Part shown: positions 1 to 61,211 of the stretch, piece after piece
Layout of the letters: every line of letters begins with the position of its first letter
How positions within the stretch are numbered: position 1 is the first letter of the stretch
Program-made: the position numbers and the translations under genes
Notes under the pieces: model-generated
Database searches by the model: none
What the model was told of the DNA's origin: nothing
The model's input: only the letters and a program-made list of their open reading frames with translations
NCBI GenBank assembly: GCA_964408415.1
Contig: CAYOZH010000001.1
Span: 47,256-111,255 of the forward strand
DNA: 64,000 bases
Source of the DNA: an uncultured Gammaproteobacteria bacterium
GTDB taxonomy: Bacteria > Patescibacteriota > Microgenomatia > UBA1406 > GWC2-37-13
Direction: 5' to 3'

Positions 1-56
1 AATTCTTAATTTTTAACTTTTGATTTTGTCCGCCAGTTGGCGGATTTAATTTCTTA
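1..56. repeat. palindrome family A, copy 1 (core TCCGCCAGTTGGCGGA at 29-44) with T-heptad flanks
   Basis: AATTCTTAATTTTTAACTTTTGATTTTG-core-TTTAATTTCTTATTA, directly 3' of the rpsK stop. Confidence 0.85.
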
Positions 57-434
57 TTACACTCTTCTTAATTTTGGTGGTCTAACACCATTATGAGGTA
101 TAGGCGTAACATCTATAATCCTATTCACCTCAAGATTAGAACTTTTAACTGCTCTTAATGCCGCCTCTCTTCCCGGGCCAATTCCTTTAATAAAAATATC
201 AACTACAGAAAGATTATGATTTTCTGTAGCTCTTTTTATTGCTGACTCAGTAGTTACTGTTGCTGCATGTGGAGTAGATTTTCTTGTTCCTGAAAAACCA
301 TGCATTCCACATGAATCAACTAATAACACATGACCATTATCATCAGTTATTGTCACAATTGTATTATTAAAAGTTGCTGTTATATAAATTCTTCCTTTTT
401 CAACAATTTTTTTAGTTTGTTTTTTTACCGCCAT
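57..434 (-). CDS. rpsK: 30S ribosomal protein S11
   Basis: 125-aa ORF with the S11 C-terminal signature TPIPHNGVRPPKLRRV. It sits next to S13 as in the alpha operon. Confidence 0.95.
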   Translation of the reverse strand: MAVKKQTKKIVEKGRIYITATFNNTIVTITDDNGHVLLVDSCGMHGFSGTRKSTPHAATVTTESAIKRATENHNLSVVDIFIKGIGPGREAALRAVKSSNLEVNRIIDVTPIPHNGVRPPKLRRV

Positions 435-5308: not shown

Positions 5309-5354
5309 TATTGAAAAAATTAAAATTTTTAATTATTAATTATTAATTTTTAAT
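5309..5354. repeat. T/A heptad-type low-complexity spacer (S5/L18)
   Basis: TTGAAAAAATTAAAATTTTTAATTATTAATTATTAATTTTTAATTT. It belongs to the same repeat style as the family A flanks. Confidence 0.6.
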
Positions 5355-5699
5355 TTAAACTTTTATACCTCCTTCTCTTAATCCTTCTGCTACTGCTTTT
5401 ACTCTACCTTTATAAACATAAACATTTCTATCAAAAACTGCTTTTTTTATATTTTTTTCAAGTAATTTTTTTGCTAATTCTAAACCAACTTGTTTAGCTT
5501 GATCAACTTTTTTTGTTTTTTTTTTCTTTTGACTTGATGAGGCAACTATTGTTACTCTTTTTTCATCATCAATCGCTTGAGCATAAATATATCTATTTGA
5601 TCTAAAAACACTAATTCTTGGACGATCAGCACTTCCTTTTATTTTTGAACCAATTCTTCTTTTTTTTCTTAATTTTTTATCTAAATTAACTTTTCCCAT
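5355..5699 (-). CDS. rplR: 50S ribosomal protein L18
   Basis: 114 aa with RPRISVFRSNRYIYAQAIDD and C-terminal YKGRVKAVAEGLREGGI. Confidence 0.95.
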   Translation of the reverse strand: MGKVNLDKKLRKKRRIGSKIKGSADRPRISVFRSNRYIYAQAIDDEKRVTIVASSSQKKKKTKKVDQAKQVGLELAKKLLEKNIKKAVFDRNVYVYKGRVKAVAEGLREGGIKV

Positions 5700-7706: not shown

Positions 7707-8012
7707 TTAAATTTTACTTTGACATTTTTTACAAATTCTGTTTTTCTTATTTTTTTCAATTTTATAACCAACTCTTGTAATTTTTCCACATTTTGGACAA
7801 ATTAGCATAACTTTTGACACATCTAATGGTCTTGGTACTTGAACAATACCACCTTGATTATTTTCAGGATTTTTTTTAAGATGTCTTTTATAAAGATTCA
7901 CCCCCAAAATTAACACTTTATTAGCTTTTCGATAAACTTTTTCAACTACCCCTTCTTTTCCTTTATCTTTTCCGGCAATTACTTTTACTTTATCACCCTT
8001 TTTAATTTTCAT
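7707..8012 (-). CDS. rplX: 50S ribosomal protein L24 (with CxxC...CxxC)
   Basis: 101 aa with a KOW motif (KKGDKVKVIAGKDKGKEG). The C-terminal part carries CPKCGKITRVGY...ICKKCQ. Confidence 0.93.
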   Translation of the reverse strand: MKIKKGDKVKVIAGKDKGKEGVVEKVYRKANKVLILGVNLYKRHLKKNPENNQGGIVQVPRPLDVSKVMLICPKCGKITRVGYKIEKNKKNRICKKCQSKI

Positions 8013-8061
8013 TTTTAATATTATAAATTTTAAATTTTTAACTTTTATTTTTAATTTATTT
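8013..8061. repeat. T-heptad spacer (L14/L24)
   Basis: ATTTTTAATATTATAAATTTTAAATTTTTAACTTTTATTTTTAATTTATTT. Confidence 0.6.
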
Positions 8062-8436
8062 TTAATAAATTTCTTCTGCTAAACTAGCAATTTTATTAAA
8101 TCCATTATCTTTAACTTCTTTAGCAATTGGGCCAAAAATTCTTGTTCCTTTTGGATCTTTAACATCTTTTCCTGCTAAAATTACACAAGCATTATCATCA
8201 AATCTAATATAACTACCATCTTTTCGTCTTTTTTCTTTTCTAGTTCTGACAATCACTGCTCGATGAACTTCACCTTTTTTAACTGCTGAATAAGGAATTG
8301 CTTCTTTAACAACAATATTTATTACTTCTCCTAAATAAGCATATCTTCGATTACCTTTTTTTGCCATACCAATCATTGACACTTTTTTCGCTCCAGTATT
8401 ATCAGCAACATTTAATATTGATCTTAATTGCAACAT
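8062..8436 (-). CDS. rplN: 50S ribosomal protein L14
   Basis: 124 aa starting MLQLRSILNVADNTGAKK, with RFDDNACVIL. Confidence 0.95.
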   Translation of the reverse strand: MLQLRSILNVADNTGAKKVSMIGMAKKGNRRYAYLGEVINIVVKEAIPYSAVKKGEVHRAVIVRTRKEKRRKDGSYIRFDDNACVILAGKDVKDPKGTRIFGPIAKEVKDNGFNKIASLAEEIY

Positions 8437-8676: not shown

Positions 8677-8889
8677 TTATTTCTTTAAACTTTCTAACAA
8701 TTTTTTTTCTGACAAAACTGTTAATAAAACTGCTAATTGTTTTCTTTTTTTAATTAATAAATTAGTATCTTTTGGTGGATTTACCTTAAAAGATACTTTT
8801 AATTTAGCAATTTCTTGCGATAATAACTCTTTTTCTTTTTCAAGTTCTTTAATTGTTTTTTGTTTGTATTCTTTAACAATTTTTTTCAT
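8677..8889 (-). CDS. rpmC: 50S ribosomal protein L29
   Basis: 70-aa helical ORF between L16 and S17, overlapping the rplP stop. Confidence 0.85.
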   Translation of the reverse strand: MKKIVKEYKQKTIKELEKEKELLSQEIAKLKVSFKVNPPKDTNLLIKKRKQLAVLLTVLSEKKLLESLKK

Positions 8890-9296
8890 ATAGTTTTTTT
8901 AATAACTTTTGTTTTAACAGAAAGTTTAGAAGCAACCACTCTTAATACTTCTAAACTTTCTTTTTCTCCCAAACCATCAATTTCAAACAAAACTCTTCCA
9001 GGAACAACTGAAGCAACAAAATAAGCAACATCTCCTTTACCTGCACCCATTGTCACTTCTGGTGGTTTTTTAGTAAATGGTTTATCAGGAAAAATCCTTA
9101 TCCAAAACTTACCTACTTTTTTTGTTGCTCGAGCAAAAACTACTCTAGCTGCTTCAATCTCTTTATCTTTTATCCAACCAGCCTCAAGCGCTTTTAATCC
9201 ATATGAACCAAAATTAAGCTCATCGCCTTTTGTAGCAATTTTTCTCCAGATTCCTCGAAACTGTTTTCTGTGTTTTTGTCTTTTTGGTGCTAACAT
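8886..9296 (-). CDS. rplP: 50S ribosomal protein L16
   Basis: Starts MLAPKRQKHRKQFRG. The ATG at 9296 is preferred over the track's upstream start. Confidence 0.93.
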   Translation of the reverse strand: MLAPKRQKHRKQFRGIWRKIATKGDELNFGSYGLKALEAGWIKDKEIEAARVVFARATKKVGKFWIRIFPDKPFTKKPPEVTMGAGKGDVAYFVASVVPGRVLFEIDGLGEKESLEVLRVVASKLSVKTKVIKKTI

Positions 9297-9368
9297 ATTA
9301 TTAAAAATCAAAATTCAAAAGTCAAAAGTCAAAATTCAAATTTACCAGTTGGCGAACAAAAGTTAAAA
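9297..9368. repeat. palindrome family A, degenerate copy (core TTACCAGTTGGCGAA at 9342-9356) plus heptad array
   Basis: It fills the whole S3/L16 spacer with AAAATCA AAATTCA AAAGTCA AAAGTCA AAATTCA then the core. The reverse complement aligns with copy 1. Confidence 0.7.
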
Positions 9369-10007
9369 TTATCTACATATCCAAACTTTAACTCCAACAT
9401 AACCTGATTTGGTTAATGCTGGAAAATGAGCAAAATCAATATCTTCTCTTATAGTTGATGTTGGAATTGTACCTTGAAAATACTTTTCTCTTCGCGAAAT
9501 CTCTGCTCCAGCAATTCTTCCACCTAATTGAACTTTAACTCCTTTTGCTCCAGCTTCCATTACTTTATTCATCGCATTGTGAACAACTGATCGATGAGGA
9601 AAATTCCTCACTAATTTTTCAGCAATTGATTGAGCGACATAATAAGCATTTAAATATGGTTTTTTTACTTGTTCAATCTTAATATCAACTTTTAATTCTT
9701 TATTTTTATCATTTTTTTTCAAATATGGACTAATATATTTTTTTATCTCCTCCAATCCTTTACCTCCACGACCAATAATCATTCCTGGTTTAACAGAATA
9801 AATTATCAAAGTAATTTTATTAATTGCTCTTTCTATATCAATCTGTGTCACTGATGCATAAGCTAATTTTTTCATTAACAAATCTCTTATCATCACATCA
9901 GATATTAAACTTTCTCGATATAGTTTTTTATTTGAAAAAAACCATCGAGAATTCCAGTTATATATTATTCCCAATCTTAATCCTTTTGGATTAACTTTTT
10001 GTCCCAT
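9369..10007 (-). CDS. rpsC: 30S ribosomal protein S3
   Basis: 212 aa starting MGQKVNPKGLRLGI, with a KH domain (GMIIGRGGKG). Confidence 0.95.
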   Translation of the reverse strand: MGQKVNPKGLRLGIIYNWNSRWFFSNKKLYRESLISDVMIRDLLMKKLAYASVTQIDIERAINKITLIIYSVKPGMIIGRGGKGLEEIKKYISPYLKKNDKNKELKVDIKIEQVKKPYLNAYYVAQSIAEKLVRNFPHRSVVHNAMNKVMEAGAKGVKVQLGGRIAGAEISRREKYFQGTIPTSTIREDIDFAHFPALTKSGYVGVKVWICR

Positions 10008-13070: not shown

Positions 13071-13379
13071 TTACATTTTAACTTCTACTTCAACACCTGC
13101 TGGTAATTCTAAATGCATTAATGAATCAATAGTCTGATTAGTTGGATTAACAATATCAATTAATCTTTTATGGGTTTTTAAACCAAAATGATCTCTGGCA
13201 TTTTTATCAGTAAATGTTGATTTGTTAACAACAAAAACTTCATTTTTTGTTGGTAATGGAATTGGACCAACAATTGATGCGCCTGTTCTAATAGCAGTAT
13301 CTACTAATTTTTGACAGGTTTCATCAATTAACCGATGATCGTAAGATTTAAGTCTGATTCTTATTCTTCCTTTCGGCAT
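13071..13379 (-). CDS. rpsJ: 30S ribosomal protein S10
   Basis: 102 aa with RIRLKSYDHRLIDE...THKRLIDI. Confidence 0.95.
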   Translation of the reverse strand: MPKGRIRIRLKSYDHRLIDETCQKLVDTAIRTGASIVGPIPLPTKNEVFVVNKSTFTDKNARDHFGLKTHKRLIDIVNPTNQTIDSLMHLELPAGVEVEVKM

Positions 13380-13398
13380 ATTAAAGTGCGAAAATGTT

Positions 13399-13420
13399 GG
13401 GGCGCCTAAAACGGCGCCCC
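13399..13420. repeat. GC-rich hairpin GGGGCGCC-TAAAAC-GGCGCCCC in the tuf/rpsJ spacer
   Basis: Perfect 8-bp GC stem. Its loop and inner stem (GCC-GTTTTA-GGC in the transcript sense) match the hairpin at 36246-36263. Confidence 0.8.
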
Positions 13421-13440
13421 AAAAAAATTTTAATTAAAAA

Positions 13441-14625
13441 TTACTTAATAATTTTTGTTACTACTCCAGCGCCAACAGTGTGACCACCTTCTCGAATAGC
13501 AAATTTTAATCCTTCCTCCATAGCTACTGGATAAATAAGTTTTGCTGTTACTTTAACATTATCTCCAGGCATCACCATTTCAACTCCGGCTGGTAATGTC
13601 ATCTCACCGGTAATATCAGTGGTTTTAATATAAAATTGTGGTCTGTAACCATTAAAAAATGGAGTATGACGACCACCTTCTTCTTTTGTTAATACATAAA
13701 CTTCAGCCTCAAATTCAGTGTGAGGTGTAATTGAGCCTGGTTTAGCCACTACTTGACCTCGAATAACATCGGTCTTTTCAATACCTCGAAGCAAAAGACC
13801 AACATTATCACCAGCTCTTGCTTCATCTAAACTTTTTCTAAACATCTCAATTCCAGTAACAACAGTTTTTTTAGTTTCTTTTACTCCAACTATTTCAACT
13901 TCTTCATTAAGCTTAATTGTTCCTCTTTCAACTCTTCCAGTAACAACAGTTCCTCGACCAGAAATGGTAAAAACATCCTCAATTGGCATTAAGAATGGTT
14001 GGTCAACTGGTCTGACTGGTTCTGGAACATATTCATCAACTGCATTCATTAAATCTTCAATTGCTTTTACTGCTTCTGGATCATCTTGTAAGGCCTTTAA
14101 AGCGCTTCCACGAATCACCGGAACTTTGTCTCCAGGAAATTTATATTTAGTTAAAAGATCTCTTACTTCCATCTCAACTAAATCTAAGATCTCTTTATCT
14201 TGAACCATATCAACTTTATTTAAGAAAACAACAATTGCTGGTACATTAACTTGACGAGCTAAAAGAATATGTTCTCTTGTTTGAGGCATTGGTCCATCTG
14301 GAGCAGAAACAACTAAAATAGCTCCATCCATTTGAGCCGCGCCAGTAATCATATTTTTAATATAATCAGCATGACCTGGAGCATCAATGTGAGCATAATG
14401 ACGTTTATCAGTCTCATATTCGCTGTGATGAAGATTAATTGTCACTCCACGAGCTCTTTCTTCTGGAGCTTTGTCAATCTCTTCATATTTTAAGAATTTT
14501 GCTTTTCCTTTTTTTGATAATACATAATGGATCGCGGAAGTTAAAGTAGTTTTTCCGTGATCAACATGACCAATAGTACCGATATTAAGATGTGGTTTAG
14601 TTCTTTGAAATACACCTTCTGCCAT
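13441..14625 (-). CDS. tuf: elongation factor Tu
   Basis: G1-G4 motifs are present ([21 protein letters not shown]). The start is taken at [12 protein letters not shown] (ATG 14625); the track's upstream extension is hydrophobic junk. Confidence 0.95.
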
Positions 14626-14698
14626 AATATTTATAAAATAAATTAATAACAATAAAAAGAAAGCCTTATAAAGAAGGCTCACTTCTTTTAATGCATTA

Positions 14699-14727: not shown

Positions 14728-14744
14728 GGTCAATTTAATTATGA

Positions 14745-22980: not shown

Positions 22981-23002
22981 TAAAACAATTATATACTATA
23001 AT

Positions 23003-23036
23003 AAGGACAGAACCTTTTAAAAAAGGTTCTGTCCTT
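23003..23036. repeat. palindrome family B copy (AAGGACAGAACCTTTT-AA-AAAAGGTTCTGTCCTT)
   Basis: Near-perfect 34-nt palindrome in the 76-nt divergent spacer between the hydrolase gene and miaB. Confidence 0.85.
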
Positions 23037-23056
23037 AAAATTTATAAACATTTATT

Positions 23057-24313
23057 ATGGCTATTTTAAGCTATTATATTAAAACATTCGGTTGTCAACA
23101 AAATAAAGCTGATTCTGAAAGAATTGCTGCTGCTTTTGAAGCAAAAGGAATGAAACCAGCAAAAGGATATCACGATGCTAATTATATTGTCATAAACACT
23201 TGTATGGTCAGACAATCAGCTGAAGATAGAGTATATGGATTAGTAAGAAATTTAGCAAAATTAAAAATCAATCCGCCAGCTGGCGGACAAAAATTAAAAA
23301 TCATTATTACAGGTTGTATGGTTGGTGTTGCTCATCGAGATAAAACAGGAAAATTACTTGCAAAACTAAAAGAAAGAATGCCTGAAGTTGATGAATTTTT
23401 ACCAATTGAAGAAGTTGGATTTGATAATGAACCAATTAGAACCAACAAAACTCACGCATGGATACCAATATCAAATGGTTGTAATAATTTTTGTACTTTT
23501 TGTGTTGTTCCTTTTACTCGAGGACGAGAAATTAGTCGACCATTTGAAGATATAATCGCTGAAGCAAAAAAATTAAAAGAACAAGGATATAAAGAAATTA
23601 CTCTTCTTGGACAAAATGTTAATTCATATGGCGCGGATTTAATTTTAGGTAAAGAAAATATTCAAGTAATGAGAGACCTTCCAAAAACATACTTTGAAAA
23701 TTCAAAATTCAAAATTCAAAATTCAAAATTACAATTAAAAACTAAAGAATTAAAATTCAATGAAAATTTAAAATTGAAAATTGAAAATTATAAACCAATA
23801 TATGTCAAACATTTAGGTCGATATCGAATACCAACTTTGTTTCCTTATTTACTTGAAGAAGTGGCAAAACTTGATTTTGAAAAAGTTGATTTTATTTCAT
23901 CAAATCCATGGGATTTTTCTGATGAACTAATTGAGGTAATTGCCAAATATCCAAATATTACCAGGACTATTCATTTACCTGTTCAATCTGGAGACGATAA
24001 TGTTTTAAAAAGAATGAATCGATGGTACAGTGCGAGCAATTATATCAGTCTAATATCAAAAATCAAAAATAAAATACCAAACGTTAAATTCACTACTGAT
24101 ATAATTGTCGGTTTTTGTGGAGAAACTGACGAAGAGTTTGAAAACACAGTTAAACTTTGCAAAAAAGTTGGTTTTGAAAGAGCTTATATCGCAATGTATT
24201 CTCCCCGACCAATGACCGCTGCAACAAAAGTGATGAAAGACGATGTACCTTATGAGGTAAAAAAGAAACGATGGACAATACTAGAAAATTTAATAAATAA
24301 AAAAGAAAATTAG
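23057..24313 (+). CDS. miaB: radical-SAM methylthiotransferase MiaB-like (no TRAM domain, two repeat-derived inserts)
   Basis: UPF0004 domain (IKTFGCQQN, INTCMVR, TGCM) and radical SAM motif CNNFCTFCVVP. Ends shortly after the radical-SAM/C-terminal core. Confidence 0.85.
   Translation: MAILSYYIKTFGCQQNKADSERIAAAFEAKGMKPAKGYHDANYIVINTCMVRQSAEDRVYGLVRNLAKLKINPPAGGQKLKIIITGCMVGVAHRDKTGKLLAKLKERMPEVDEFLPIEEVGFDNEPIRTNKTHAWIPISNGCNNFCTFCVVPFTRGREISRPFEDIIAEAKKLKEQGYKEITLLGQNVNSYGADLILGKENIQVMRDLPKTYFENSKFKIQNSKLQLKTKELKFNENLKLKIENYKPIYVKHLGRYRIPTLFPYLLEEVAKLDFEKVDFISSNPWDFSDELIEVIAKYPNITRTIHLPVQSGDDNVLKRMNRWYSASNYISLISKIKNKIPNVKFTTDIIVGFCGETDEEFENTVKLCKKVGFERAYIAMYSPRPMTAATKVMKDDVPYEVKKKRWTILENLINKKEN
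23272..23287. repeat. palindrome family A copy inside miaB (TCCGCCAGCTGGCGGA)
   Basis: Perfect 16-nt palindrome translated in frame as PPAGG. Flanks are AAATTAAAAATCAA / CAAAAATTAAAAATC. Confidence 0.85.
23694..23793 (+). repeat. 7-nt tandem repeat array (GAAAATT/CAAAATT ...) inside miaB
   Basis: TGAAAATTCAAAATTCAAAATTCAAAATTCAAAATTACAATT...AAAATTGAAAATTGAAAATTATAAA, read in frame as ENSKFKIQNSKLQLKTKELKFNENLKLKIENYK. Confidence 0.8.
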
Positions 24314-26961: not shown

Positions 26962-28248
26962 ATGACAATTACAATTATTGGTCATGGATATGTTGGTTTA
27001 GTCACTGCTTGTGTTTTTGCTGATTTTGGTAATACTGTTTATGTTATAGGCCACACTAAAGAAAAAATTGAAAGATTAAAAAAAGGCGACCCAATTATTT
27101 ATGAGCCAGGATTAAAAGAAATCTTAGAAAGAAATATCAAAGCAAAAAGAATATTTTTTAGTTTAGATTATGACTCAATTAAATTGTCTGAAATAGTTTT
27201 TATTACTGTTGGTACTCCGCCTAAAGAAAATGGTGAAGCTGATCTAACAGCTGTTTTTGAAGTTGCCAGAAACATTGCTAAAAATTTAGGAAATCACTTT
27301 ACTGTTGTTTCTTGTAAAAGCACTGTCCCTGTTGGGACTAATAAAAAAGTAGAAACAATCTTAAAAAAACACTCTCCAAAAAACTCTCAATTTGCCGTTG
27401 CTTCATGCCCTGAGTTTTTAAGAGAAGGAAGCGCTATTGCTGACACTATCTATGCTGATAGAGTTGTTATTGGCTCTGAATCAAAAAAAGCAATTGATAT
27501 GCTTCTAAAGCTTCATGAACCAATTGAAGGAAAAAAAGTTGTTACTGATTTAGCCTCAGCTGAATTAATAAAATATACCTCAAACGCGATGTTGGCAACA
27601 AAAATCTCTTTTGCCAATCTTATTTCTTTTTATTGTGAAAAAACTGGCGCTGATGTTGAAGCAGTTTTAGATGCAGTAGGTCTTGATAAAAGAATTGGTC
27701 GAGTTTTTATGCATCCAGGAGTTGGTTATGGCGGATCTTGTTTTCCAAAAGATGTTATGGCAATGATTGATATTGGAAAAAAACTCAATATTGATCCTCT
27801 TCTTCTTGAAGCAGTAGAAAAAATTAATCTTCAAGCAAAAGAAAATTTTTTACAAAAAGTTTTAAAATTCAATCAAGGTAAAAAAATTGCTCTTTGGGGA
27901 CTAGCTTTTAAACCAAATACTGATGATATTAGATTTGCACCTTCAATTTTTTTAATAGAAAATCTCTTAAAACAAGGTTTTGAAATCACTGCCTATGATC
28001 CAGAGGCGAAAAAAAATATTGAAAAAATCTTTGGTAATAAGATCAAATATGCTAAAGATCCTTACGAAGCTGTCAAAAATGCTGATCAACTTTTGGTTAT
28101 TACTGAATGGAATGAGTTTAAACAAATTGATCTTCAAAAAGTAAAAAAATTATTAAAAACACCAGTGATTTTTGATGGTAGAAATATTTATGATCCTCGT
28201 CTTATGAAAAAATTAGGTTTTAAGTATTATTCTGTTGGAAGAATATGA
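26962..28248 (+). CDS. ugd: UDP-glucose 6-dehydrogenase
   Basis: 428 aa with IGHGYVGL, the catalytic GGSCFPKD and LAFKPNTDD. Confidence 0.9.
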   Translation: MTITIIGHGYVGLVTACVFADFGNTVYVIGHTKEKIERLKKGDPIIYEPGLKEILERNIKAKRIFFSLDYDSIKLSEIVFITVGTPPKENGEADLTAVFEVARNIAKNLGNHFTVVSCKSTVPVGTNKKVETILKKHSPKNSQFAVASCPEFLREGSAIADTIYADRVVIGSESKKAIDMLLKLHEPIEGKKVVTDLASAELIKYTSNAMLATKISFANLISFYCEKTGADVEAVLDAVGLDKRIGRVFMHPGVGYGGSCFPKDVMAMIDIGKKLNIDPLLLEAVEKINLQAKENFLQKVLKFNQGKKIALWGLAFKPNTDDIRFAPSIFLIENLLKQGFEITAYDPEAKKNIEKIFGNKIKYAKDPYEAVKNADQLLVITEWNEFKQIDLQKVKKLLKTPVIFDGRNIYDPRLMKKLGFKYYSVGRI

Positions 28249-29216
28249 ATGTTTTAATTACCGGTGGTGCAGGTTTTATTGGTTCTCATTTAACAAAACT
28301 TCATCTTAAAAAAGGTGATTATGTGATTGTAATTGATAATTTATCAACAGGCTCAATAGAAAATATTAAAGAATTATTAAATAATAAAAATTTTAAATTT
28401 ATACATAATGATATATTAACTTTTGATTTTAATTCGCCAGCTGGCGAATTAACTTTTAATTTGAATTTAGTCTATCACCTCGCCTCTCCTGCTTCTCCAA
28501 ATCATCATAGTTTAATTAGTTATCATCATCTTGCAAAAGAAACTATGCTTGTTAATACTTTAGGCACTTTAAAACTTTTAGAATTAGCAAAAAAACACAA
28601 AGCAAAATTTTTATTCGCTTCAACCTCAGAAATCTACGGTAATCCTCTTGTTCATCCTCAAAAAGAAACTTATTTTGGTAATGTTAATCCTATTGGACCA
28701 CGAGCAATTTATGATGAAGCAAAAAGATTTGGAGAAACCTTAACTTCTTATTTTTGGAATAAAGAAAAAGTTGATGCAAGAATTGTCCGAATTTTTAATA
28801 CTTACGGACCAAATATGAGAGTTGATGATAAAAGAATGATTATTAATTTTATCTGTCAAGCTTTAAAAAATGAACCAATAACAATTTATGGTGATGGCAA
28901 GCAAACAAGATCATTATGTTTTATCGATGATTTAATTGATGGTTTATTTAAATTGATGATAAATAAAAATACTAAAGGTGAGGTTGTTAATCTTGGTAAT
29001 CCAGAAGAACATACAATATTAGAATATGCTCAAATAATAAAAAAATTAACTAACTCAAAAAGCGAAATTATTTTTAAAGAACCTCTGCCTACTGACGATC
29101 CAGAAAAGAGATGTCCTGATATTTCAAAAGCAAAAAAACTTCTTTCTTGGCAACCAAAAGTTTCTTTAATTGAAGGCTTAAAAAAAACTATTAATTATTT
29201 TAAAAATATCTTATGA
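28245..29216 (+). CDS. UDP-glucuronate decarboxylase-like SDR (UXS type) with in-frame palindrome insert
   Basis: VLITGGAGFIGSH, HLASPASP, STSEIYG, YDEAKR and RIFNTYGP. ATGA overlap with ugd. Confidence 0.8.
   Translation: MNVLITGGAGFIGSHLTKLHLKKGDYVIVIDNLSTGSIENIKELLNNKNFKFIHNDILTFDFNSPAGELTFNLNLVYHLASPASPNHHSLISYHHLAKETMLVNTLGTLKLLELAKKHKAKFLFASTSEIYGNPLVHPQKETYFGNVNPIGPRAIYDEAKRFGETLTSYFWNKEKVDARIVRIFNTYGPNMRVDDKRMIINFICQALKNEPITIYGDGKQTRSLCFIDDLIDGLFKLMINKNTKGEVVNLGNPEEHTILEYAQIIKKLTNSKSEIIFKEPLPTDDPEKRCPDISKAKKLLSWQPKVSLIEGLKKTINYFKNIL
28415..28468. repeat. palindrome family A copy inside the UXS-like gene (AATTCGCCAGCTGGCGAATT at 28431-28450)
   Basis: TTAACTTTTGATTTT-palindrome-AACTTTTAATTTGAATTT, with direct TTAACTTTT(G/A)ATTT repeats on both sides. 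Read in frame as LTFDFNSPAGELTFNLN. Confidence 0.85.
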
Positions 29217-33006: not shown

Positions 33007-33053
33007 ACAATTATTGATTATTAATTATTAATTTTTAATTATTAATTATTATT
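33007..33053. repeat. T/A heptad-type spacer (argS/radA)
   Basis: ACAATTATTGATTATTAATTATTAATTTTTAATTATTAATTATTATT. Confidence 0.6.
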
Positions 33054-34346
33054 ATGTCCTTTTTTGTTTGCAAAAATTGTGGTTTTGGTTCAGCCTCTTG
33101 GTACGGCAAATGTCCTGACTGTGGTCAATGGAATACTTTAGTGGAAAAACCAGAGTTTTCTCCAAATACTAAAAATAAAAATCAAAAAGAATCTTTAAAA
33201 AAAATCACCATCACTCCTTTAAAATCAATAAAAACTCAGTCAAAGCAACGAATAAAAACCTCGCTTTTTGAACTTGATCGAGTTTTAGGAGGAGGATTTT
33301 TACCTGGCGAAGTCATTCTTTTAACCGGCGAACCAGGAATTGGCAAATCAACGCTTATTCTTCAAGCTTTAAAAGATATAAACACTCTTTATATTTCTGG
33401 TGAAGAATCAGGTGAACAAGTTAAAAATAGAGCTGATAGATTAAATATAAATTTAGACAATTTTCTTTTTTCCAATGACACTCAAATTGAAGGAATTATT
33501 GAAACTGCTGTTGAAATTAAGGATAAAATTAAAGTTTTAGTCATTGATTCAATCCAAACTGTTTACTCAAAAGATGTTCAGGGAGCAGCTTCAGGAGTAA
33601 ATCAATTAAAAGAAACAACAAAAATGCTAGTTAATTTTGCTAAAAAAAATAATATTGTTGTGATCATTATTGGTCATATTACCAAAGAAGGAGAGATTGC
33701 TGGACCAAAAACACTAGAGCATTTTGTCGATGCGGTTTTAAACTTTGAAGGAGAAAAAATCTCCAATTACCGACTAATTAGATCATCAAAAAATCGATTT
33801 GGATCAACAGATGAAATTGGTATTTTTGAGATGACTCAACAAGGTTTAAAAGAAATAGATAATCCTTTAGTTTTTCTTGAATCTGAAGAAATTAATCAAC
33901 CAGGTAAAGCTATTGTTGGCGTCTCTGAAGGTAAAAGACCATTATTTTTTGAGATTCAAACTTTAACCGTCCCATCGATTTTACCAGTTCCAAGACGAGT
34001 AGTAAAAGGACTTGATTATAATAAAGTCTTATTACTTTTAGCAGTTGTCAGAAAAAATCTTAATTACTCTCTTGATAATTATGATATTTATGTTAATGTT
34101 ATTGGTGGTGTTTCCGTCAAAAGTACCAGCGCTGATTTAGGATTAATCGCTAGTTTGATCTCATCTTTTAAAAATAAACCTTTACCTAGCTCATCTCTTT
34201 TTATTGGTGAAGTTGGTCTTCTGGGAGAAATAAGAAAAGTATATTTTGAAGAAAAAGTAATTACTGAAGCAAAAAGATTAGGATTTAAAAAAATTTTTTT
34301 CAGTCAAAATATTAAAAATGTTAAAGATTTAATGAGTTTTATTTAG
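33054..34346 (+). CDS. radA: DNA repair protein RadA
   Basis: N-terminal Zn ribbon (CKNCG...CPDCGQWNT), Walker A GEPGIGKST, KNRFG and a Lon-like C-terminal domain. Confidence 0.92.
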   Translation: MSFFVCKNCGFGSASWYGKCPDCGQWNTLVEKPEFSPNTKNKNQKESLKKITITPLKSIKTQSKQRIKTSLFELDRVLGGGFLPGEVILLTGEPGIGKSTLILQALKDINTLYISGEESGEQVKNRADRLNINLDNFLFSNDTQIEGIIETAVEIKDKIKVLVIDSIQTVYSKDVQGAASGVNQLKETTKMLVNFAKKNNIVVIIIGHITKEGEIAGPKTLEHFVDAVLNFEGEKISNYRLIRSSKNRFGSTDEIGIFEMTQQGLKEIDNPLVFLESEEINQPGKAIVGVSEGKRPLFFEIQTLTVPSILPVPRRVVKGLDYNKVLLLLAVVRKNLNYSLDNYDIYVNVIGGVSVKSTSADLGLIASLISSFKNKPLPSSSLFIGEVGLLGEIRKVYFEEKVITEAKRLGFKKIFFSQNIKNVKDLMSFI

Positions 34347-35665: not shown

Positions 35666-36703
35666 TTAAACTATATTTATTAATTTTAACTCATCAATTC
35701 TTGAAACTCCAGCAAAAATAAGCGCTAATCGATCAAAACCAATCGCAATTCCACTACAAGGTTTAAGACCATATTTTAACGCCTCAATAAACCCTTTGTC
35801 AATGGGATGAATGATTTTATCAGATTTTCTTCTAATTTTATCTTCATTAAAAAATCTTTGTTCTTGCTCTTGCCAATCAGTTAACTCTGTATAACAATCA
35901 CCTAACTCTACACCATTAATATAAAATTCAAATCTTTGAGCAGTTTTTCCATCTTGATTTAATTTTGCTAAAGCAGCAAACTCTTTAGGATAGTCATAAA
36001 TTAAAGTTGGATAGCCATTAACTCCCAATTTAGGCTCAATTTCTTGAACATAAATCTGCGACCAAATATCCTCATAACTAAAACCATCAACTCGACAACC
36101 TTTTTCTTTTGCTTTTTTAATAAATAATTGATGATCAAAAAGTTCTTTTTCACTAATACCAGCATACCTCTCAAAAGCCTCAACTACACTAATTTTCTCC
36201 CATTTATTAAATCTAATTTTAGATTTTAAATTTTCATTTTGCTTGCCCGCCGTTTTAGGCGGGAGTTTTGTCCGCCAGTTGGCGGATTGAATTTTCTTAT
36301 TAACATATTCCATCATCTCTAATACCTCATCAGCCAACTGTAAATAATCAACTCCCATTTTGTAAATCTCCAACATATTAAACTCAAAAGAATGAAGTTT
36401 TGCTGGCGGGTCACTATTTCTAAATGATTTGCCTAAATAATAACAATCACCAACACCATAAGCTAAAAGCCTTTTTAAAAATAATTCTGGCGATGGAGTT
36501 AGATATAATTTTTCTTTTTTATCAAAATATCTAAACTCTGTTTCAAAAACTTCAAGATAACTTTCTGGAATTAAAGCTGGAGATAAAACTGGCAAATCAA
36601 TTTTTAAATATCCTTTTTTTTCTAAAAACTCCTCAACTGCTTTTTGAACTGCAAAATAAACTTTGTAATTTTCTAAATTCTCTATATTAGTCTGTATTTG
36701 CAT
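35666..36703 (-). CDS. epmA: EF-P lysine ligase EpmA (GenX/PoxA, class II LysRS paralog) with in-frame palindrome insert
   Basis: Class II motifs are present (FRNSDP...HSFEFNMLE; GIAIGFDRL). It is immediately upstream of efp. Confidence 0.8.
   Translation of the reverse strand: MQIQTNIENLENYKVYFAVQKAVEEFLEKKGYLKIDLPVLSPALIPESYLEVFETEFRYFDKKEKLYLTPSPELFLKRLLAYGVGDCYYLGKSFRNSDPPAKLHSFEFNMLEIYKMGVDYLQLADEVLEMMEYVNKKIQSANWRTKLPPKTAGKQNENLKSKIRFNKWEKISVVEAFERYAGISEKELFDHQLFIKKAKEKGCRVDGFSYEDIWSQIYVQEIEPKLGVNGYPTLIYDYPKEFAALAKLNQDGKTAQRFEFYINGVELGDCYTELTDWQEQEQRFFNEDKIRRKSDKIIHPIDKGFIEALKYGLKPCSGIAIGFDRLALIFAGVSRIDELKLINIV
36246..36286. repeat. two adjacent GC-rich hairpins inside epmA (CCCGCC-GTTTTA-GGCGGG at 36246-36263; TCCGCCAGTTGGCGGA at 36271-36286)
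   Basis: Both have perfect stems. Read on the minus strand in frame as SANWRTKLPPKTAG. Confidence 0.85.
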
Positions 36704-38781: not shown

Positions 38782-38818
38782 AAGGACAGAACCTTTTTGA
38801 AAAAAAGGTTCTGTCCTT
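38782..38818. repeat. palindrome family B copy between dnaK and dnaJ
   Basis: AAGGACAGAACCTTTTTGAAAAAAAGGTTCTGTCCTT, with the same arms as 23003-23036. Confidence 0.85.
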
Positions 38819-38858
38819 AAAATTTTTGATCTTTGATTTTTGATTTTTAATTTTTAAT
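38819..38858. repeat. T-heptad array adjoining the family B palindrome
   Basis: TTTTTGA TCTTTGA TTTTTGA TTTTTAA TTTTTAA TTTAATT, with a strict 7-nt period. Confidence 0.7.
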
Positions 38859-40754
38859 TTAATTTACCACCTCTCCCTCCTCAACATCTTCTTTTTTATT
38901 GTCTTTGTCTTCCTCAGATTTATTATTTTCAGATTTGACATTTGAGTTTTGAGTTTTAAGATTTTCTTGATATATTGCTTGACCAATTTTTGTCAACTCA
39001 TCAGATAATTCTTTTGTTTTTGTCTCAATCTCCTCTTTAGTCCCTTTTTCTAAAGTTTCTTTTAGTTCTTTTATTTTCTTTTCAACATTTTCTTTTACAT
39101 CTTTTGGCGCTTTATCTCCAGCATCTTTTAAAGATTTTTCCGCTACATAAATCATATTGTCTGCTTTATTTCTCGCCTCAATTTTTTCTTTTTCTAATCG
39201 ATCTCTTTCGGCATTTTTCTCTGCTTCTTCTTTCATTCTCTCAATCTCTTCTTTACTCAAACCAGTTGAACCAGTAATTTTTATGCTTTGTGATTTACCA
39301 GTTGCCTTATCTTTTGCTGTCACTGACAATATTCCTGAAGCATCGATATCAAATGTCACTTCAATTTGAGGTACACCTCTTGGCGCTGGAGGAATACCAT
39401 CTAAAATAAATCGACCTAAAGATTTGTTATCTCTTGCCATTGGTCTTTCTCCTTGCAAAATATGAATCTCAACCTGAGTTTGATTATCAGCAGCAGTTGA
39501 AAATACTTCAGTTTTTGCTGTTGGAATAGTGGTATTTCTTGGAATAAGTGGTGTCATCACTCCACCCAAAGTCTCAACACCCAAAGTCAAAGGAGTAACA
39601 TCAAGCAAAACCACATCTTTTGTCTCACCAGTTAAAACACCAGCTTGCACTGCTGCGCCAACTGCTACTACTTCATCTGGATTAACAGATCGATTTGGTT
39701 CTTTTCCAAAGAATTTTTTCACTTTTTCAACAACAAGTGGCATTCTTGTCATACCACCAACTAAAACAACTTCATCAACTTTACTAACATCAACTTTTGC
39801 ATCTTTTAAACATTTTTTTACTGGCTCAAATGACTTATCAACCAAATGTTCAACTAAAGATTCTAATTTTGCTCTTGTTAATTTCATCACAAAATGTAAT
39901 GGTTGTCCATCTTTAACAGTAATGAATGGTAAATTAACCTCAGTTTCAAGTGATGAGGACAACTCAATTTTTGCTTTTTCTGCTGCATCTCTTAATCGTT
40001 GCAATGCTTGTGGATCTTTTTTCAAATCAATTCCATACTCTTTTTTAAACTCATCAGCAAAATAATTTAAAATCACTTGATCAAAATCATCACCTCCTAA
40101 ATGAGTATCACCATTAGTTGCTTTAACTTGAAAAACACCTTCACCAAGCTCTAACACTGTAATATCAAAAGTACCACCGCCAAGATCATAAACAGCAATT
40201 GTATGAGCGTGTTTTTTATCCAATCCATAAGCTAAAGAAGCAGCTGTTGGCTCGTTAATAATCCTTACCACCTCAAGTCCCGCAATCTCACCAGCTTGTT
40301 TTGTTGCTTGTCTTTGAGCATCATCAAAATAAGCAGGGACAGTAATTACTGCTTTTTCCACTTTTTCTCCTAAATATGCCTCAGCATCAGCTTTAATTTT
40401 TTGCAAAATCATTGCTGAAATTTCTTGCGGAGTATAGGTTTTTCCCTCAACCTCAACTACTGCCATACCATCTCTTCCCTCTTTTATTTTATAAGGTAAC
40501 CATTTCATATCATATTGAACAGACTCATCATTAAAACGTCGTCCCATTAATCTTTTAATAGAAAAAATAGTGTTTTTTGGATTAATAACAATCTGTCTTT
40601 TTGCCACATCACCAACTACCCGCTTTACCGGATCAACTACTGATGGAATCACATTTCTTCCCTCAGCTGAATAAATAACTTTTGGTTTACCACCTTCCAT
40701 AACTGCCACACAAGAATTAGTTGTACCAAGATCAATACCAATGATTTTTGCCAT
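38859..40754 (-). CDS. dnaK: chaperone DnaK (Hsp70)
   Basis: 631 aa with [18 protein letters not shown] and [11 protein letters not shown]. Confidence 0.97.
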
Positions 40755-42518: not shown

Positions 42519-43345
42519 AACTCGGCGCTCATCAATCAATTGCAGGCGGCTATATAGAGGCATTAAAAAGAATAAAAAACATTGGTGGTAATACTTTGCA
42601 AATCTTTTCTTCATCTCCGCGTGGTTGGGGTTTTAATAAAATTGATGATAAACAAATTGCTGATTTTGTTAATTTAAAAAATCAACTAAAAATTGATCCG
42701 GTTTATTTTCATGCCTCATATTTAATAAATCTTGCTGATGAAAGAAAAATCGGTCAACTTTCTAAATTATCTTTAATTAATGAACTAAATCTTGCTTCAA
42801 AAATGAAAATAAAAGGATCTATTGTCCATTTAGGATCATATAAAAATCAAATATCAAATATAAAATATCAAATATTAATAAACAACATCAAAGAAATCTT
42901 GTCTAAAACTCCAAAAGATACTTATTTTATTATTGAAAATGCTGGAACAAGAAAAATTGGTCAAACATTAGAGGAAATCTCTCAAATTGTTAAAGATTTA
43001 GATAATCCAAGAGTTAGATTATGTTTTGACACTTGTCATTTATTTTCCAATGGCTATAAATTTGAAAATAATAAAGAATTAGATGATTTTTTAACTAAAC
43101 TTGATTCTTTAAATTTAATTAATATTTTAGAAGTCTGGCATTTAAATGATAGCCGCGATGATTTTAATTCTGGAAAAGACAGGCACGAAAATATTGGTCA
43201 AGGAAAAATTGGTATTGAAGAATTTAAAACTCTTCTTAATCATCCAAAAACCAAAAATTATCCTTTTATTATTGAAACTCCAGGCTTTAACAATCAAGGC
43301 CCAGATAAAGAAAATTTAGATATTTTAAAATCATTAATTGTATAA
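42515..43345 (+). CDS. nfo: endonuclease IV
   Basis: 276-aa TIM-barrel AP endonuclease pattern (LGAHQSIAGG, HASYLINL, HLNDS). Confidence 0.88.
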   Translation: MKLGAHQSIAGGYIEALKRIKNIGGNTLQIFSSSPRGWGFNKIDDKQIADFVNLKNQLKIDPVYFHASYLINLADERKIGQLSKLSLINELNLASKMKIKGSIVHLGSYKNQISNIKYQILINNIKEILSKTPKDTYFIIENAGTRKIGQTLEEISQIVKDLDNPRVRLCFDTCHLFSNGYKFENNKELDDFLTKLDSLNLINILEVWHLNDSRDDFNSGKDRHENIGQGKIGIEEFKTLLNHPKTKNYPFIIETPGFNNQGPDKENLDILKSLIV

Positions 43346-50282: not shown

Positions 50283-50313
50283 AAGGACAGAACTTATTTT
50301 AAGTTCTGTCCTT
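50283..50313. terminator. palindrome family B copy acting as a probable bidirectional intrinsic terminator
   Basis: AAGGACAGAACTTATTTTAAGTTCTGTCCTT lies between convergent genes. There is a T-run after the stem on both strands (plus: ATTATTTT; minus: GTTTTTTG). Confidence 0.6.
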
Positions 50314-55364: not shown

Positions 55365-55418
55365 TCCGCCAGCTGGCAGATTTGATTTTTAATTTTTAAT
55401 TTTTAACTTTTGATTTTT
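55365..55418. repeat. palindrome family A copy (TCCGCCAGCTGGCAGA) plus T-heptad array upstream of infB
   Basis: Core at 55365-55380, followed by TTTGATTTTTAATTTTTAATTTTTAACTTTTGATTTTT up to the infB ATG. Confidence 0.8.
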
Positions 55419-56870
55419 ATGCGTCCCCCTGTTGTTACTATTTTAGGTCATGTTGATCACGGAAAAACCACTCTTTTAGATTATATTAGAAAATCAAATA
55501 TTACTGATAAAGAGTACGGAGGAATTACTCAAAAAATCGGCGCTTATGAGATCGCTACTTCTTTTAAAGATTATAAAACCAACAAAATTACCTTTATTGA
55601 TACTCCAGGTCATGAAGCTTTTTCAAAACTTCGCTCACGTGGAGCAAATGTAGCTGATATCGCTATTTTATTAATAGATGGCAAAGACTCAGTAATGCCT
55701 CAAACAATTGAATCAATCTCCCATATTAAAAATGCAAAAATTCCTTTTATTGTTGCTATAAATAAAATCGATCTTCCTGAAGTTGATATTGAAAAAGTAA
55801 AAAATGATCTTTTAAAATATGAAGTTTTAGTTGAAGGAAAAGGTGGTCAAATCCCAGTTTGTCCTATCTCAGCAAAAACTGGCCAAGGAGTAAAAGAACT
55901 TTTAGAAACAATTCTTTTTATCGCTTCTGATTTAAATATTCAATATGATATTAACTCTCCGGTTGAAGCTTATATTATCGAAACAAAAAAAGATCGCCGA
56001 GGTATTGTTGTTTCCTCAATTATCAAAAACGGTAAAATCAAAGTTGGTGATATTTTATATAATAATGAAAAGAAAATCAAAGTTCGCTCTCTTATAAATG
56101 ATCAAGGAAAAAGCATTAATGAGGTTGTTCCATCAATGCCTTTTGAAATTTTAGGTTTTGATTTTTTACCTGAAGTTGGTACAATGATAACTAGCGAAAT
56201 CAAAACTCAAGGTCAAAAAGAAGATACAAATAAAATTAATCAACAAAAATCTAACTTTAATCTTGAAGCAATTCTTGAAACTCCAAAACAAGAAAAAAAA
56301 TTATCAATAATTATCAAAACCGACTCTCAAGGAAGTCTTGAAGCAATTGAAGAGTCAATAAAAAATATTCCTAATATTGAAATTGCCTTAAAAGCAGTTG
56401 GTGAAATCAGTAAATCAGATATTTTTTTAGCAAAAACAACCAAGTCAATAATTTTAGGCTTTAATACCAAGCCAAACCTTGAAGCAGAAAATTTAGCCAA
56501 ACAAGAAAAAATCATTATTAAAACCTACAACATCATTTATGAATTATTAGATGAAATAAGCGAAGTTGCCTCACTTTTAAAAGAAAAAGAAGAAAAAGAA
56601 AAAAATCTTAAAGGAGAAGCAAAAATTTTAGCCACTTTTATCATTGAAAAAGAAACTGTTTATGGTGTAAAAGTAACAAAAGGAAAAATCAATCTTGCTG
56701 ATCCAATTGAAATATATCGAGATAATAAACTTATAGGAAAAACTAAACTGGTATCTTTAAAAATTCGAGCGAAATCTGTTAACGAAGTAAAAAAAGACCA
56801 AGAAGCAGGGATGATGTTTTATCCTCTACTTGACATTAAGGTAGGTGATGTGGTAAAATCTATCCTATAA
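55419..56870 (+). CDS. infB: translation initiation factor IF-2, minimal form starting at the G domain
   Basis: Starts [21 protein letters not shown], with DTPGHEAF and NKID. 483 aa with no N-terminal region. The ATG at 55419 is preferred over the track's TTG. Confidence 0.9.
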   Translation: MRPPVVTILGHVDHGKTTLLDYIRKSNITDKEYGGITQKIGAYEIATSFKDYKTNKITFIDTPGHEAFSKLRSRGANVADIAILLIDGKDSVMPQTIESISHIKNAKIPFIVAINKIDLPEVDIEKVKNDLLKYEVLVEGKGGQIPVCPISAKTGQGVKELLETILFIASDLNIQYDINSPVEAYIIETKKDRRGIVVSSIIKNGKIKVGDILYNNEKKIKVRSLINDQGKSINEVVPSMPFEILGFDFLPEVGTMITSEIKTQGQKEDTNKINQQKSNFNLEAILETPKQEKKLSIIIKTDSQGSLEAIEESIKNIPNIEIALKAVGEISKSDIFLAKTTKSIILGFNTKPNLEAENLAKQEKIIIKTYNIIYELLDEISEVASLLKEKEEKEKNLKGEAKILATFIIEKETVYGVKVTKGKINLADPIEIYRDNKLIGKTKLVSLKIRAKSVNEVKKDQEAGMMFYPLLDIKVGDVVKSIL

Positions 56871-61166: not shown

Positions 61167-61211
61167 GATTTTTAATTAATTTTTAATTTTTGACTTTTAA
61201 TTTTAAATTTT
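61167..61211. repeat. T-heptad array in the 255-nt spacer upstream of aspS
   Basis: GATTTTTAATTAATTTTTAATTTTTGACTTTTAATTTTAAATTTT. Confidence 0.65.

Follow-up and report, generated by a model that had tools for sequence, protein, structure and literature searches.

Rickettsia palindromic elements (RPEs), which are about 100–150 bp long and add about 30–50 residues to a protein, were reportedly described in frame within genes by Ogata et al. in 2000. The GC clusters of mitochondria are shorter, at about 30–60 nt. Rickettsia, some Proteobacteria and fungal mitochondria are known to harbour small palindromic repeats of this gene-invading kind. RPEs are found in frame in functional housekeeping genes as well as in spacers, without an associated transposase (PMC3733652). 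REPs are imperfect palindromes of 20–40 nt tagged by GTAG or CGTC, and the current view is that REPs and REPINs move in single-strand hairpin form through the action in trans of RAYT proteins, which are Y1 transposases of IS200/IS605 type (PMC3733652). MITEs are 70–300 bp long and carry terminal inverted repeats of 15–30 bp derived from an IS (PMC3733652). Among the mitochondrial elements, the GC clusters of yeast (Saccharomyces M-class) are GC palindromes in AT-rich DNA, with several co-existing families, fast mutation of the loop, and short terminal repeats (AG/TAG) that have been read as target duplications; an in-frame insertion in var1 is polymorphic between strains, and no transposase is known (PMC8811140). 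Of the mobile GC-rich palindromes known from AT-rich organelle genomes, the "byp" elements of Magnusiomyces capitatus mitochondria lie inside protein genes, and the PstI palindromes of Neurospora mitochondria lie next to tRNA genes (PMC8811140).

The DNA analysed here, a stretch of 64,000 nucleotides referred to below as the window, carries a repeat that can be set beside these systems. The 16-mer TCCGCCAGYTGGCGGA was found, at up to 3 mismatches, at five loci in the window (starting at 29, 23272, 28433, 36271 and 55365), a density of about one copy per 13 kb, against a chance expectation of 0.01 copies on average in 100 dinucleotide-preserving shuffles of the window. The core is built of a 6-bp stem, TCCGCC/GGCGGA, and a 4-nt loop, and contains no stop codon in any of the six frames. 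Because the window is composed of only 22–34% G+C and the 16-mers of 75% G+C, the cores are conspicuous in it. Three of them are exact, namely TCCGCCAGTTGGCGGA at 29–44, TCCGCCAGCTGGCGGA at 23272–23287 and TCCGCCAGTTGGCGGA again at 36271–36286. Inverted doublets of the core were not seen, either among the palindromes of the window or among the matches listed in a scan of a genome collection.

Copy 1 (29–44) is located in the spacer just 3' of rpsK (ORF 57–434, minus strand), and a core with one stem mismatch, TCCGCCAGCTGGCAGA, occupies 55365–55380 in the nusA–infB spacer. The other three are found in frame within protein-coding genes. The perfect core at 23272–23287 encodes NPPAGG, residues 72–77 of the miaB product (23057–24313, plus strand). 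In the UXS-like gene, which resembles UDP-glucuronate decarboxylase genes (28245–29216, plus strand), a symmetric two-mismatch variant, TTCGCCAGCTGGCGAA (28433–28448), encodes NSPAGE (residues 63–68); it is still a perfect palindrome and is enclosed in a 24-nt perfect palindrome spanning 28429–28452. In epmA (35666–36703, minus strand), which adjoins efp, the core at 36271–36286 encodes SANWRT (residues 140–145), and only 7 nt from it lies a second, different GC hairpin, CCCGCCGTTTTAGGCGGG (36246–36263), which encodes part of LPPKTAGK. All three reading frames stay open, in agreement with the initial annotation, which had described three copies inside housekeeping ORFs without a break of frame. 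The same annotation had counted at least six copies in the window; this holds for the five loci, which far exceed the chance expectation, but not for the sixth. That putative decayed copy, TTACCAGTTGGCGAA at 9342–9356, lies in the spacer between ORFs 8886–9311 and 9369–10007 (identified as S3 and L16 by the initial annotation only). Because it is 5 edits off the consensus and was not retrieved at ≤4 edits, where shuffled sequence gave 0–3 hits, it was left unproven: a copy at 9342 is possible but cannot be demonstrated, and the solid copies number five.

Comparison with orthologues supports the view that the copies are insertions and not ancestral coding sequence, an alternative against which the initial annotation had asked that the intragenic segments be checked. 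The core is missing from MiaB, EpmA and UXS orthologues of 75–92% protein identity, and gaps are also apparent against homologues of solved structure, where the UXS insert occupies an 8-residue gap relative to human UXS1 and the epmA region is about 28 residues longer than E. coli EpmA. The miaB copy is located in a variable Lys-rich segment; MiaB orthologues of 80–86% identity read KLKxKNxKLKII where the window reads KLKI-NPPAGG-QKLKII, and the core is absent from them. In epmA, the core belongs to an insertion of net 27 nt (9 residues) when the gene is compared with that of the locus L260 (85% protein identity). L260 itself has an empty site and keeps intact the ancestral tract AAAATTC AAAATTC AAAAATC AAAAATC, whose 7-nt units run on without a break at the position of the window's two GC hairpins. 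Three further loci (L261–L263, 96–97% identical) read TCCGTCAGCTGGCGGA at the same site.

The nearest genome is the Patescibacteria MAG KatS3mg092 (BPJE01000001.1), two loci of which (L050 and L122) share 94–96% DNA identity with the window. The rpsK and miaB copies are common to both genomes, and the UXS copy is missing from KatS3mg092: in L122 (94–95% DNA identity) the miaB copy is present and the UXS copy absent. The UXS copy is also absent, at the DNA level, from L264, and the protein P0243 has a short loop as well. As both L264 and P0243 are short at this site, the UXS copy was gained in the lineage of the window, within <5% divergence. In L260, a third outgroup, the UXS site is filled by an AT-rich segment of equal length and lacks a GC palindrome. 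No presence/absence cases beyond that of UXS were found among near-identical locus pairs of the metagenome loci.

Shared T-rich flanks had been described in the initial annotation alongside the core. Their similarity is real, in that the flanks of the copies are more alike than random sequence from the window, but it proved to be a property of the target. The flanks consist of tandem 7-nt units (TTTTGAY/TTTTAAY), which are frequent in the spacers and low-complexity coding loops of this genome, and each copy in the window touches a period-7 tract of this kind. A T-rich tract at 1–27 abuts copy 1 as target context outside the element; AAAAGTC, repeated 5.4 times, abuts the putative copy at 9342 (9303–9340); a tract at 36215–36234 adjoins the two epmA hairpins; and TTTAATT, repeated 5.6 times, abuts the nusA–infB copy (55381–55419). 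The empty sites of L123, L260, L122 and L264 already carry 7-nt tracts, and the flanks of the five copies, with similarities of 0.64 and 0.74, are no more alike than random pieces of period-7 tract (0.76 ± 0.05). For these two reasons the flanks were assigned to the target and rejected as part of the element, and since they are target sequence, the element is essentially the 16-mer.

The cores sit in these tracts in a fixed register. When the core and 3 nt were removed, the phase of the tract was restored in 15 of 22 tract-flanked copies, and in 18 of 29 at a looser cut (among the matches listed), where 1 in 7 would be expected by chance. This register was seen in many genomes with unrelated units, such as CAAAAAT, TGAATTT, TGGAAAT, TCAAAGT and CAAAACT. 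An equivalent description is that the 16-mer takes the place of 4 nt of one unit, which lengthens the tract by 12 nt. The miaB and UXS comparisons both show this net +12 nt, and the epmA comparison is readable as +12 nt, plus the 18-nt second hairpin, minus 3 nt, to give the net +27. In some comparisons, the hairpin lies in a segment of unchanged length (miaB of L221 and UXS of L260).

An exact 3-nt flanking repeat was found, among the matches listed, in 13 of 32 tract-flanked copies (2.2 expected) and in 3 of 99 copies outside tracts (2.3 expected). Because the excess is restricted to tract-flanked copies, a general 3-bp target duplication was not upheld. Direct repeats of at least 9 nt flank 17% of cores, compared with 0.2% of control positions (among the matches listed). 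Strict 7-nt periodicity of the flanks was rejected as a rule for all genomes, as it fits only about a quarter of the copies elsewhere, with about three quarters lying outside tracts (among the matches listed). The junction can be read either as a one-step, in-register replacement or as the duplication of 3 bp, after which a 7-nt unit was lost. In coding sequence, an insertion of 19 nt would need a second event, the loss of a 7-nt unit, to keep the frame, whereas replacement of 4 nt would be a single event.

The 16-mer is not confined to the window. A scan of a genome collection, in which A/T was required at two positions on each side of the core, returned at least 120 loci with 132 cores. Among the 80 loci listed, about 33 belong to Patescibacteria (of many classes) and about 29 to Bacteroidota, with taxonomy taken from record titles; as the scan was run without a control palindrome, these phylum counts are not a measure of enrichment. 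Several of the 8-kb loci are multi-copy among the matches listed, with three copies each in L005, L058 and L096 and two each in L013, L014, L031 and L051. Elsewhere, 34 of the 132 copies fall within ORFs of at least 200 aa (among the matches listed), and all three frames are used in long ORFs, where the core is translated as NPPAGG, SASWRT or IRQLAD. In an unbiased 441-kb sample around miaB, taken from 80 metagenomic relatives, 3 exact copies were found in three genomes, together with many variants that retain the stem TCCGCC/GGCGGA and carry the loops AGCT, AGTT, AACT, AATT, CGCT, TGCT, AACC, GGTT, AGCC or GGCC. In an unbiased set of related hairpins with 22 fully paired family cores, base pairing did not extend beyond 6 bp in 15 of them.

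In three Bacteroidota, the 16-mer was found within the RNase P RNA gene. The P3 hairpin and the P12 hairpin of the L012 RNA are each formed by the 16-mer; in the L096 RNA, P12 is lengthened by it and a second insertion contains it as well. These helix copies have no tracts. The copies were exposed by a search of Rfam, in which no family matching the element itself was found. The spread of the 16-mer over several phyla, including the RNase P RNA genes of Bacteroidota, had been missed by the initial annotation. In addition, 55 viral contigs contain the 16-mer, nearly all of them in GC-rich coding sequence without tracts. Viruses were therefore rejected as carriers of the element, the 16-mer there being part of the GC-rich coding background. 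Literature searches returned no paper on the 16-mer string or on such repeats in Patescibacteria, and searches with the 12-mer CGCCAGCTGGCG returned cloning, plasmid and assay papers only, which probably reflects vector sequence.

In other lineages, the same protein loops are hit by different families of GC palindrome. At miaB site 1 of L124 there is a 24-nt palindrome, CCCCGCCGTTCGCGAACGGCGGGG, and the UXS loop of L265 holds a CCCCGCC..GGCGGGG hairpin. Hairpins of the form CCCGCC..GGCGGG, related to CCCGCCGTTTTAGGCGGG, were found in L124, L228, L233, L248 and L265. A further palindrome, CCTGCCTGCCGGCAGGCAGG, is an exact +21-nt insertion in L187 relative to L203 and is multi-copy in L200 and L207.

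Differences between close relatives cluster in and around the cores and are C-to-T or G-to-A changes. The orthologue of copy 1 in the sister genome (L050, 96% nucleotide identity) has the loop AACT where the window has AGTT, and further examples of decay are AATT in L124 and TCCGTC in L261–L263. Such changes could result from deamination in the exposed loop or at methylated AGCT. Because copies decay fast in an AT-biased genome, perfect copies imply recent addition.

Several explanations for this recurrence were weighed. Chance, or descent of ancestral coding sequence, can be given almost no credence and is already refuted for the window: the 16-mer does arise by chance in the coding sequence of GC-rich genomes and viral contigs, as RQLAD/E, but hardly any copy is expected in the window, and the segments are absent from close and distant orthologues. 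That biased uptake or selection has enriched the core, as a DNA uptake signal or as a palindromic site to which a chromosomal protein binds, is very improbable. Such a role would suit a perfect palindrome centred on CAGCTG that is found in genes and spacers in AT-rich surroundings. Known uptake signals (USS of Haemophilus and DUS of Neisseria) occur about once per kb, are species-specific and arise by point substitution, whereas the 16-mer is present here about once per 13 kb, arises as an insertion and is found in several phyla; its central bases vary freely while the stem is kept. The CAGCTG site itself is not unusual, with 13 in the window, and restriction avoidance of CAGCTG was accordingly not seen. 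A selected functional module, be it an intrinsic terminator, an insulator against antisense transcription, an mRNA stabiliser or a stem-loop bound by a protein or RNase, deserves somewhat more weight but is still improbable. The core gives a stable RNA hairpin (−10.8 to −12.5 kcal/mol) followed by a U-rich tract on one strand, caps helices of RNase P RNA as a structural element and, in L226, L228 and L242, which share an orthologous site that is apparently non-coding, keeps its stem while the loop varies. On the mRNA strand, however, the three intact copies (29, 23272 and 36271), which lie inside transcription units, are followed by A-rich sequence, and the first 10 nt beyond the hairpin contain only 1–2 U. 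It is the weakened copies that have a terminator-like orientation; at 55365, the stem mismatch of TCCGCCAGCTGGCAGA lowers the sense-strand RNA hairpin to −4.8 kcal/mol. An intrinsic (Rho-independent) terminator was rejected, as the intact copies lack a sense-strand U-tract and three copies are intragenic. The host genes are unrelated housekeeping genes, presence differs between 95% identical genomes, and the same protein loops hold different palindromes in other lineages, which fits tolerance better than function.

The strongest rival, although we regard it as unlikely, is spread without a dedicated enzyme, through ectopic gene conversion or replication template switching between dispersed 7-nt tracts, where the tracts would give homology or microhomology and the hairpin would stall the polymerase. 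It would explain why every copy in the window touches a tract, and in-register conversion between tracts would yield the 4-nt replacement, net +12, in one in-frame step. Same-length replacements do exist (miaB of L221, UXS of L260), the window and L122 differ repeatedly by 7-nt indels, and flank repeats are not in excess outside tracts. The lack of a transposase points the same way. A survey of the genes of the 64-kb window bore out the earlier statement that it holds no transposase, and no recombinase was found in it either; a RAYT (Y1/HUH transposase) was found neither in the window nor recurring beside cores in the loci listed; and when ORFs within 1.5 kb of the 132 cores (at least 120 loci) were clustered, there was no recurrent gene family, only RNase P synteny. 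Against spread of this kind, the same register is seen in tracts of unrelated units, so that separate founding events of equal geometry would be needed. The cores outside tracts, about three quarters of those elsewhere among the matches listed, and the RNase P helix copies are not accounted for, and without an insertion step it is difficult to see how different phyla came to share an identical 16-mer.

The explanation we favour, with somewhat better than even confidence, is that the 16-mer is a selfish, non-autonomous, copy-and-paste hairpin repeat, copied into A/T-rich tracts of short period. New copies would be added to A/T-rich 7-nt tandem sequence, in spacers and in low-complexity protein loops. 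They would land in a fixed register, either as the core with 3 nt or as the core replacing 4 nt; the copies would arise by transposition-like insertion, in which the 3 nt may be a 3-bp target-site duplication. Copies would persist where the harm is small, as in spacers, protein surface loops and the tips of RNA helices, and in an AT-biased host they would decay quickly by C-to-T or G-to-A changes, often hitting the central AGCT. The conserved stem with its free loop, the sharp 16-nt boundary and the presence of the same 16-mer in several phyla lead us to infer that the hairpin is recognised by an enzyme acting in trans; no candidate for this enzyme was found.

A broader proposal is made more tentatively, and we hold it with rather less than even confidence. 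The repeat would represent a kind of very small mobile DNA not described before, a hairpin of 16 nt that depends for its movement on an enzyme supplied in trans. Present in Patescibacteria, Bacteroidota and a few other lineages, it would repeatedly remodel the surface loops of housekeeping proteins and the helix tips of RNase P RNA, as a bacterial counterpart of mitochondrial GC clusters. If mobile, the 16-nt hairpin would be among the shortest mobile units known to us. To our knowledge, the movement of the mitochondrial and Rickettsia elements is still unexplained, and the transposition of GC clusters has been an open question since the 1980s. Should the proposal be true, bacteria would harbour a comparable element whose unit is minimal and sharply bounded (6-bp stem and 4-nt loop), whose independent insertion sites in public genomes number in the hundreds and whose junctions follow a clear rule, and its presence in cultivable Bacteroidota (Niastella and Chryseosolibacter) would make mobility testable. 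It would also account for some of the numerous short insertions by which Patescibacteria proteins differ from lineage to lineage, and would serve as a warning to annotators and aligners that NPPAGG, SASWRT and IRQLAD in low-complexity loops are repeat-derived.

The initial annotation had placed the repeat in a non-autonomous REP/MITE/RPE-like family. A non-autonomous palindromic repeat that tolerates in-frame insertion is an apt description, because the copies are insertions relative to orthologues, their presence differs at 95% identity and the window holds no transposase; the canonical RPE, REP and MITE, as defined by size, tag and terminal repeats, are not matched. Bacterial MITEs (Correia/NEMIS, ERIC and Nezha) are likewise non-autonomous, with inverted ends and possibly a short target duplication, but the 16-mer is 16 nt in total, with two arms of 6–8 bp and nothing between them, and there is no IS in the window. 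With REPs it has in common that it is a small, GC-rich, multi-copy stem-loop, and REPs are occasionally intragenic. REPs are, however, mostly found downstream of genes and often as inverted doublets, whereas the 16-mer is a perfect palindrome without doublets, three of its five copies in the window are intragenic, and no GTAG/CGTC tag or other conserved flanking tetranucleotide was seen in the flank composition of 131 copies. The likeness to RPEs drawn by the initial annotation lies in the in-frame insertion into conserved, functional ORFs (miaB, the UXS-like gene and epmA), which was found here as well. The 16-mer is nonetheless not an RPE, being 16 nt long as opposed to about 100–150, adding 4–6 residues, ceasing to pair after 6 bp in most of the family cores and residing in another host lineage.

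The mitochondrial elements come closer in their surroundings. Like the byps and PstI palindromes, the 16-mer is a GC-rich palindrome in AT-rich genomes, and one copy, in L043, is found 10 nt beyond a tRNA gene. Byps disrupt the reading frame, and the ribosome skips them, whereas the host ORFs of the 16-mer stay open; because every one of them is open through the insert, no ribosomal bypass is needed. The GC clusters of yeast differ in being fungal and mitochondrial, and the 16-mer, with which they have no sequence similarity, is bacterial, only 16 nt long, set in a fixed register in 7-nt tracts and spread over several phyla; its host here is a bacterium whose closest relatives belong to the Patescibacteria/Microgenomates group, so that the analogy is one of behaviour only. 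The 16-mer lacks defining features of RPEs (size), REPs (the tag and the extragenic bias), MITEs (long terminal repeats and total length) and GC clusters (organelle and host). It behaves most like the GC clusters of yeast mitochondria, as a GC palindrome in an AT-rich genome that is polymorphic between close genomes and is carried in frame in protein genes.

Comparison of the window with the corresponding locus of the nearest sister genome was carried out over window positions 29-60 (L050, 5768-5800), where substitutions are clustered beside the hairpin. About 4 differences fall within 23 nt, 2 of them in the loop and 2 in the adjoining flank, despite an overall identity of 96% between the two sequences. 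Hairpins of the 16-mer family were also observed in tandem or close together in other genomes. Two abutting copies occupy a third MiaB loop (SAKGGSASGG) in L229 (3997-4026). A Vogelbacteria MAG has two at a distance of 75 nt within one Lys-rich ORF (L013, 7147 and 7222), and two are separated by 43 nt in a Bacteroidetes MAG (L031, 2633 and 2676).

MiaB loops are likewise among the sites of another perfect palindrome, the 20-nt CCTGCCTGCCGGCAGGCAGG, which several metagenome contigs of Microgenomates-like character carry in multiple copies. Copies were located at L200 135, 2518, and 3492; L207 1501 and 5682; L237 3597; L240 2035; L258 3579; and L003 about 125. Alignment of the miaB loci L187 and L203 showed this palindrome as an exact insertion of +21 nt in L187, whose copy carries one additional central base, and it is this extra base that restores the frame. 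A strong GC hairpin in the window, TTGGGGCGCC-TAAAAC-GGCGCCCCAA (13397-13422, in the spacer between the ORFs at 13071-13379 and 13441-14682), has no sequence relation to the 16-mer.

A second inverted repeat, of the form AAGGACAGAAC(C)...(G)GTTCTGTCCTT with arms of 12-17 bp, is dispersed in the window. Its copies lie in the spacer upstream of miaB, between divergent starts (23002-23037), in the dnaK/dnaJ spacer (38782-38818), and in a spacer of convergent genes (50283-50313), three settings that differ in gene geometry. A shorter version is found upstream of miaB in a related locus (L123), and the orthologous miaB spacer of the sister genome (L122) differs from that of the window by indels of 53 and 73 nt.

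Period-7 tandem tracts are frequent in the window, in spacers and also in genes. The AAAATTC tract inside miaB (14 units, 23697-23789) encodes ENSKFKIQNSKLQLKTKELKFNENLKLKIENY, and MiaB orthologues are hypervariable in length at the region encoded by this tract. Further tracts are present at 5324-5356, 7999-8066, 33009-33055, 38822-38860, 42838-42875, and 61176-61204, and 7-nt indels set the window apart from the 95% identical L122. The latter also contains a 1361-nt segment (184-1544) that is absent from the window (near 14740); placed between tuf and a UvrD-like helicase gene, it comprises one gene resembling CPDase/2'-5' RNA ligase and one without a family match. In the Logan short-read assemblies (L266-L268), the ribosomal protein operon is represented only by contigs of 1.0-1.4 kb, that of L266 starting inside the neighbouring ORF; repeats may be the cause of this fragmentation.

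Outside this lineage, the identical 16-mer was found, among the matches listed, in the RNase P RNA genes of at least three Bacteroidota (L012, 4274-4680; L067, 3546-3955; L096, 318-768). In the first of these RNAs, P3 and P12 are both formed by the 16-mer. The Rfam consensus for P12 of RNase P RNA is CCgCc..GgcGG, and the stem of the 16-mer thus resembles the native P12 stem.
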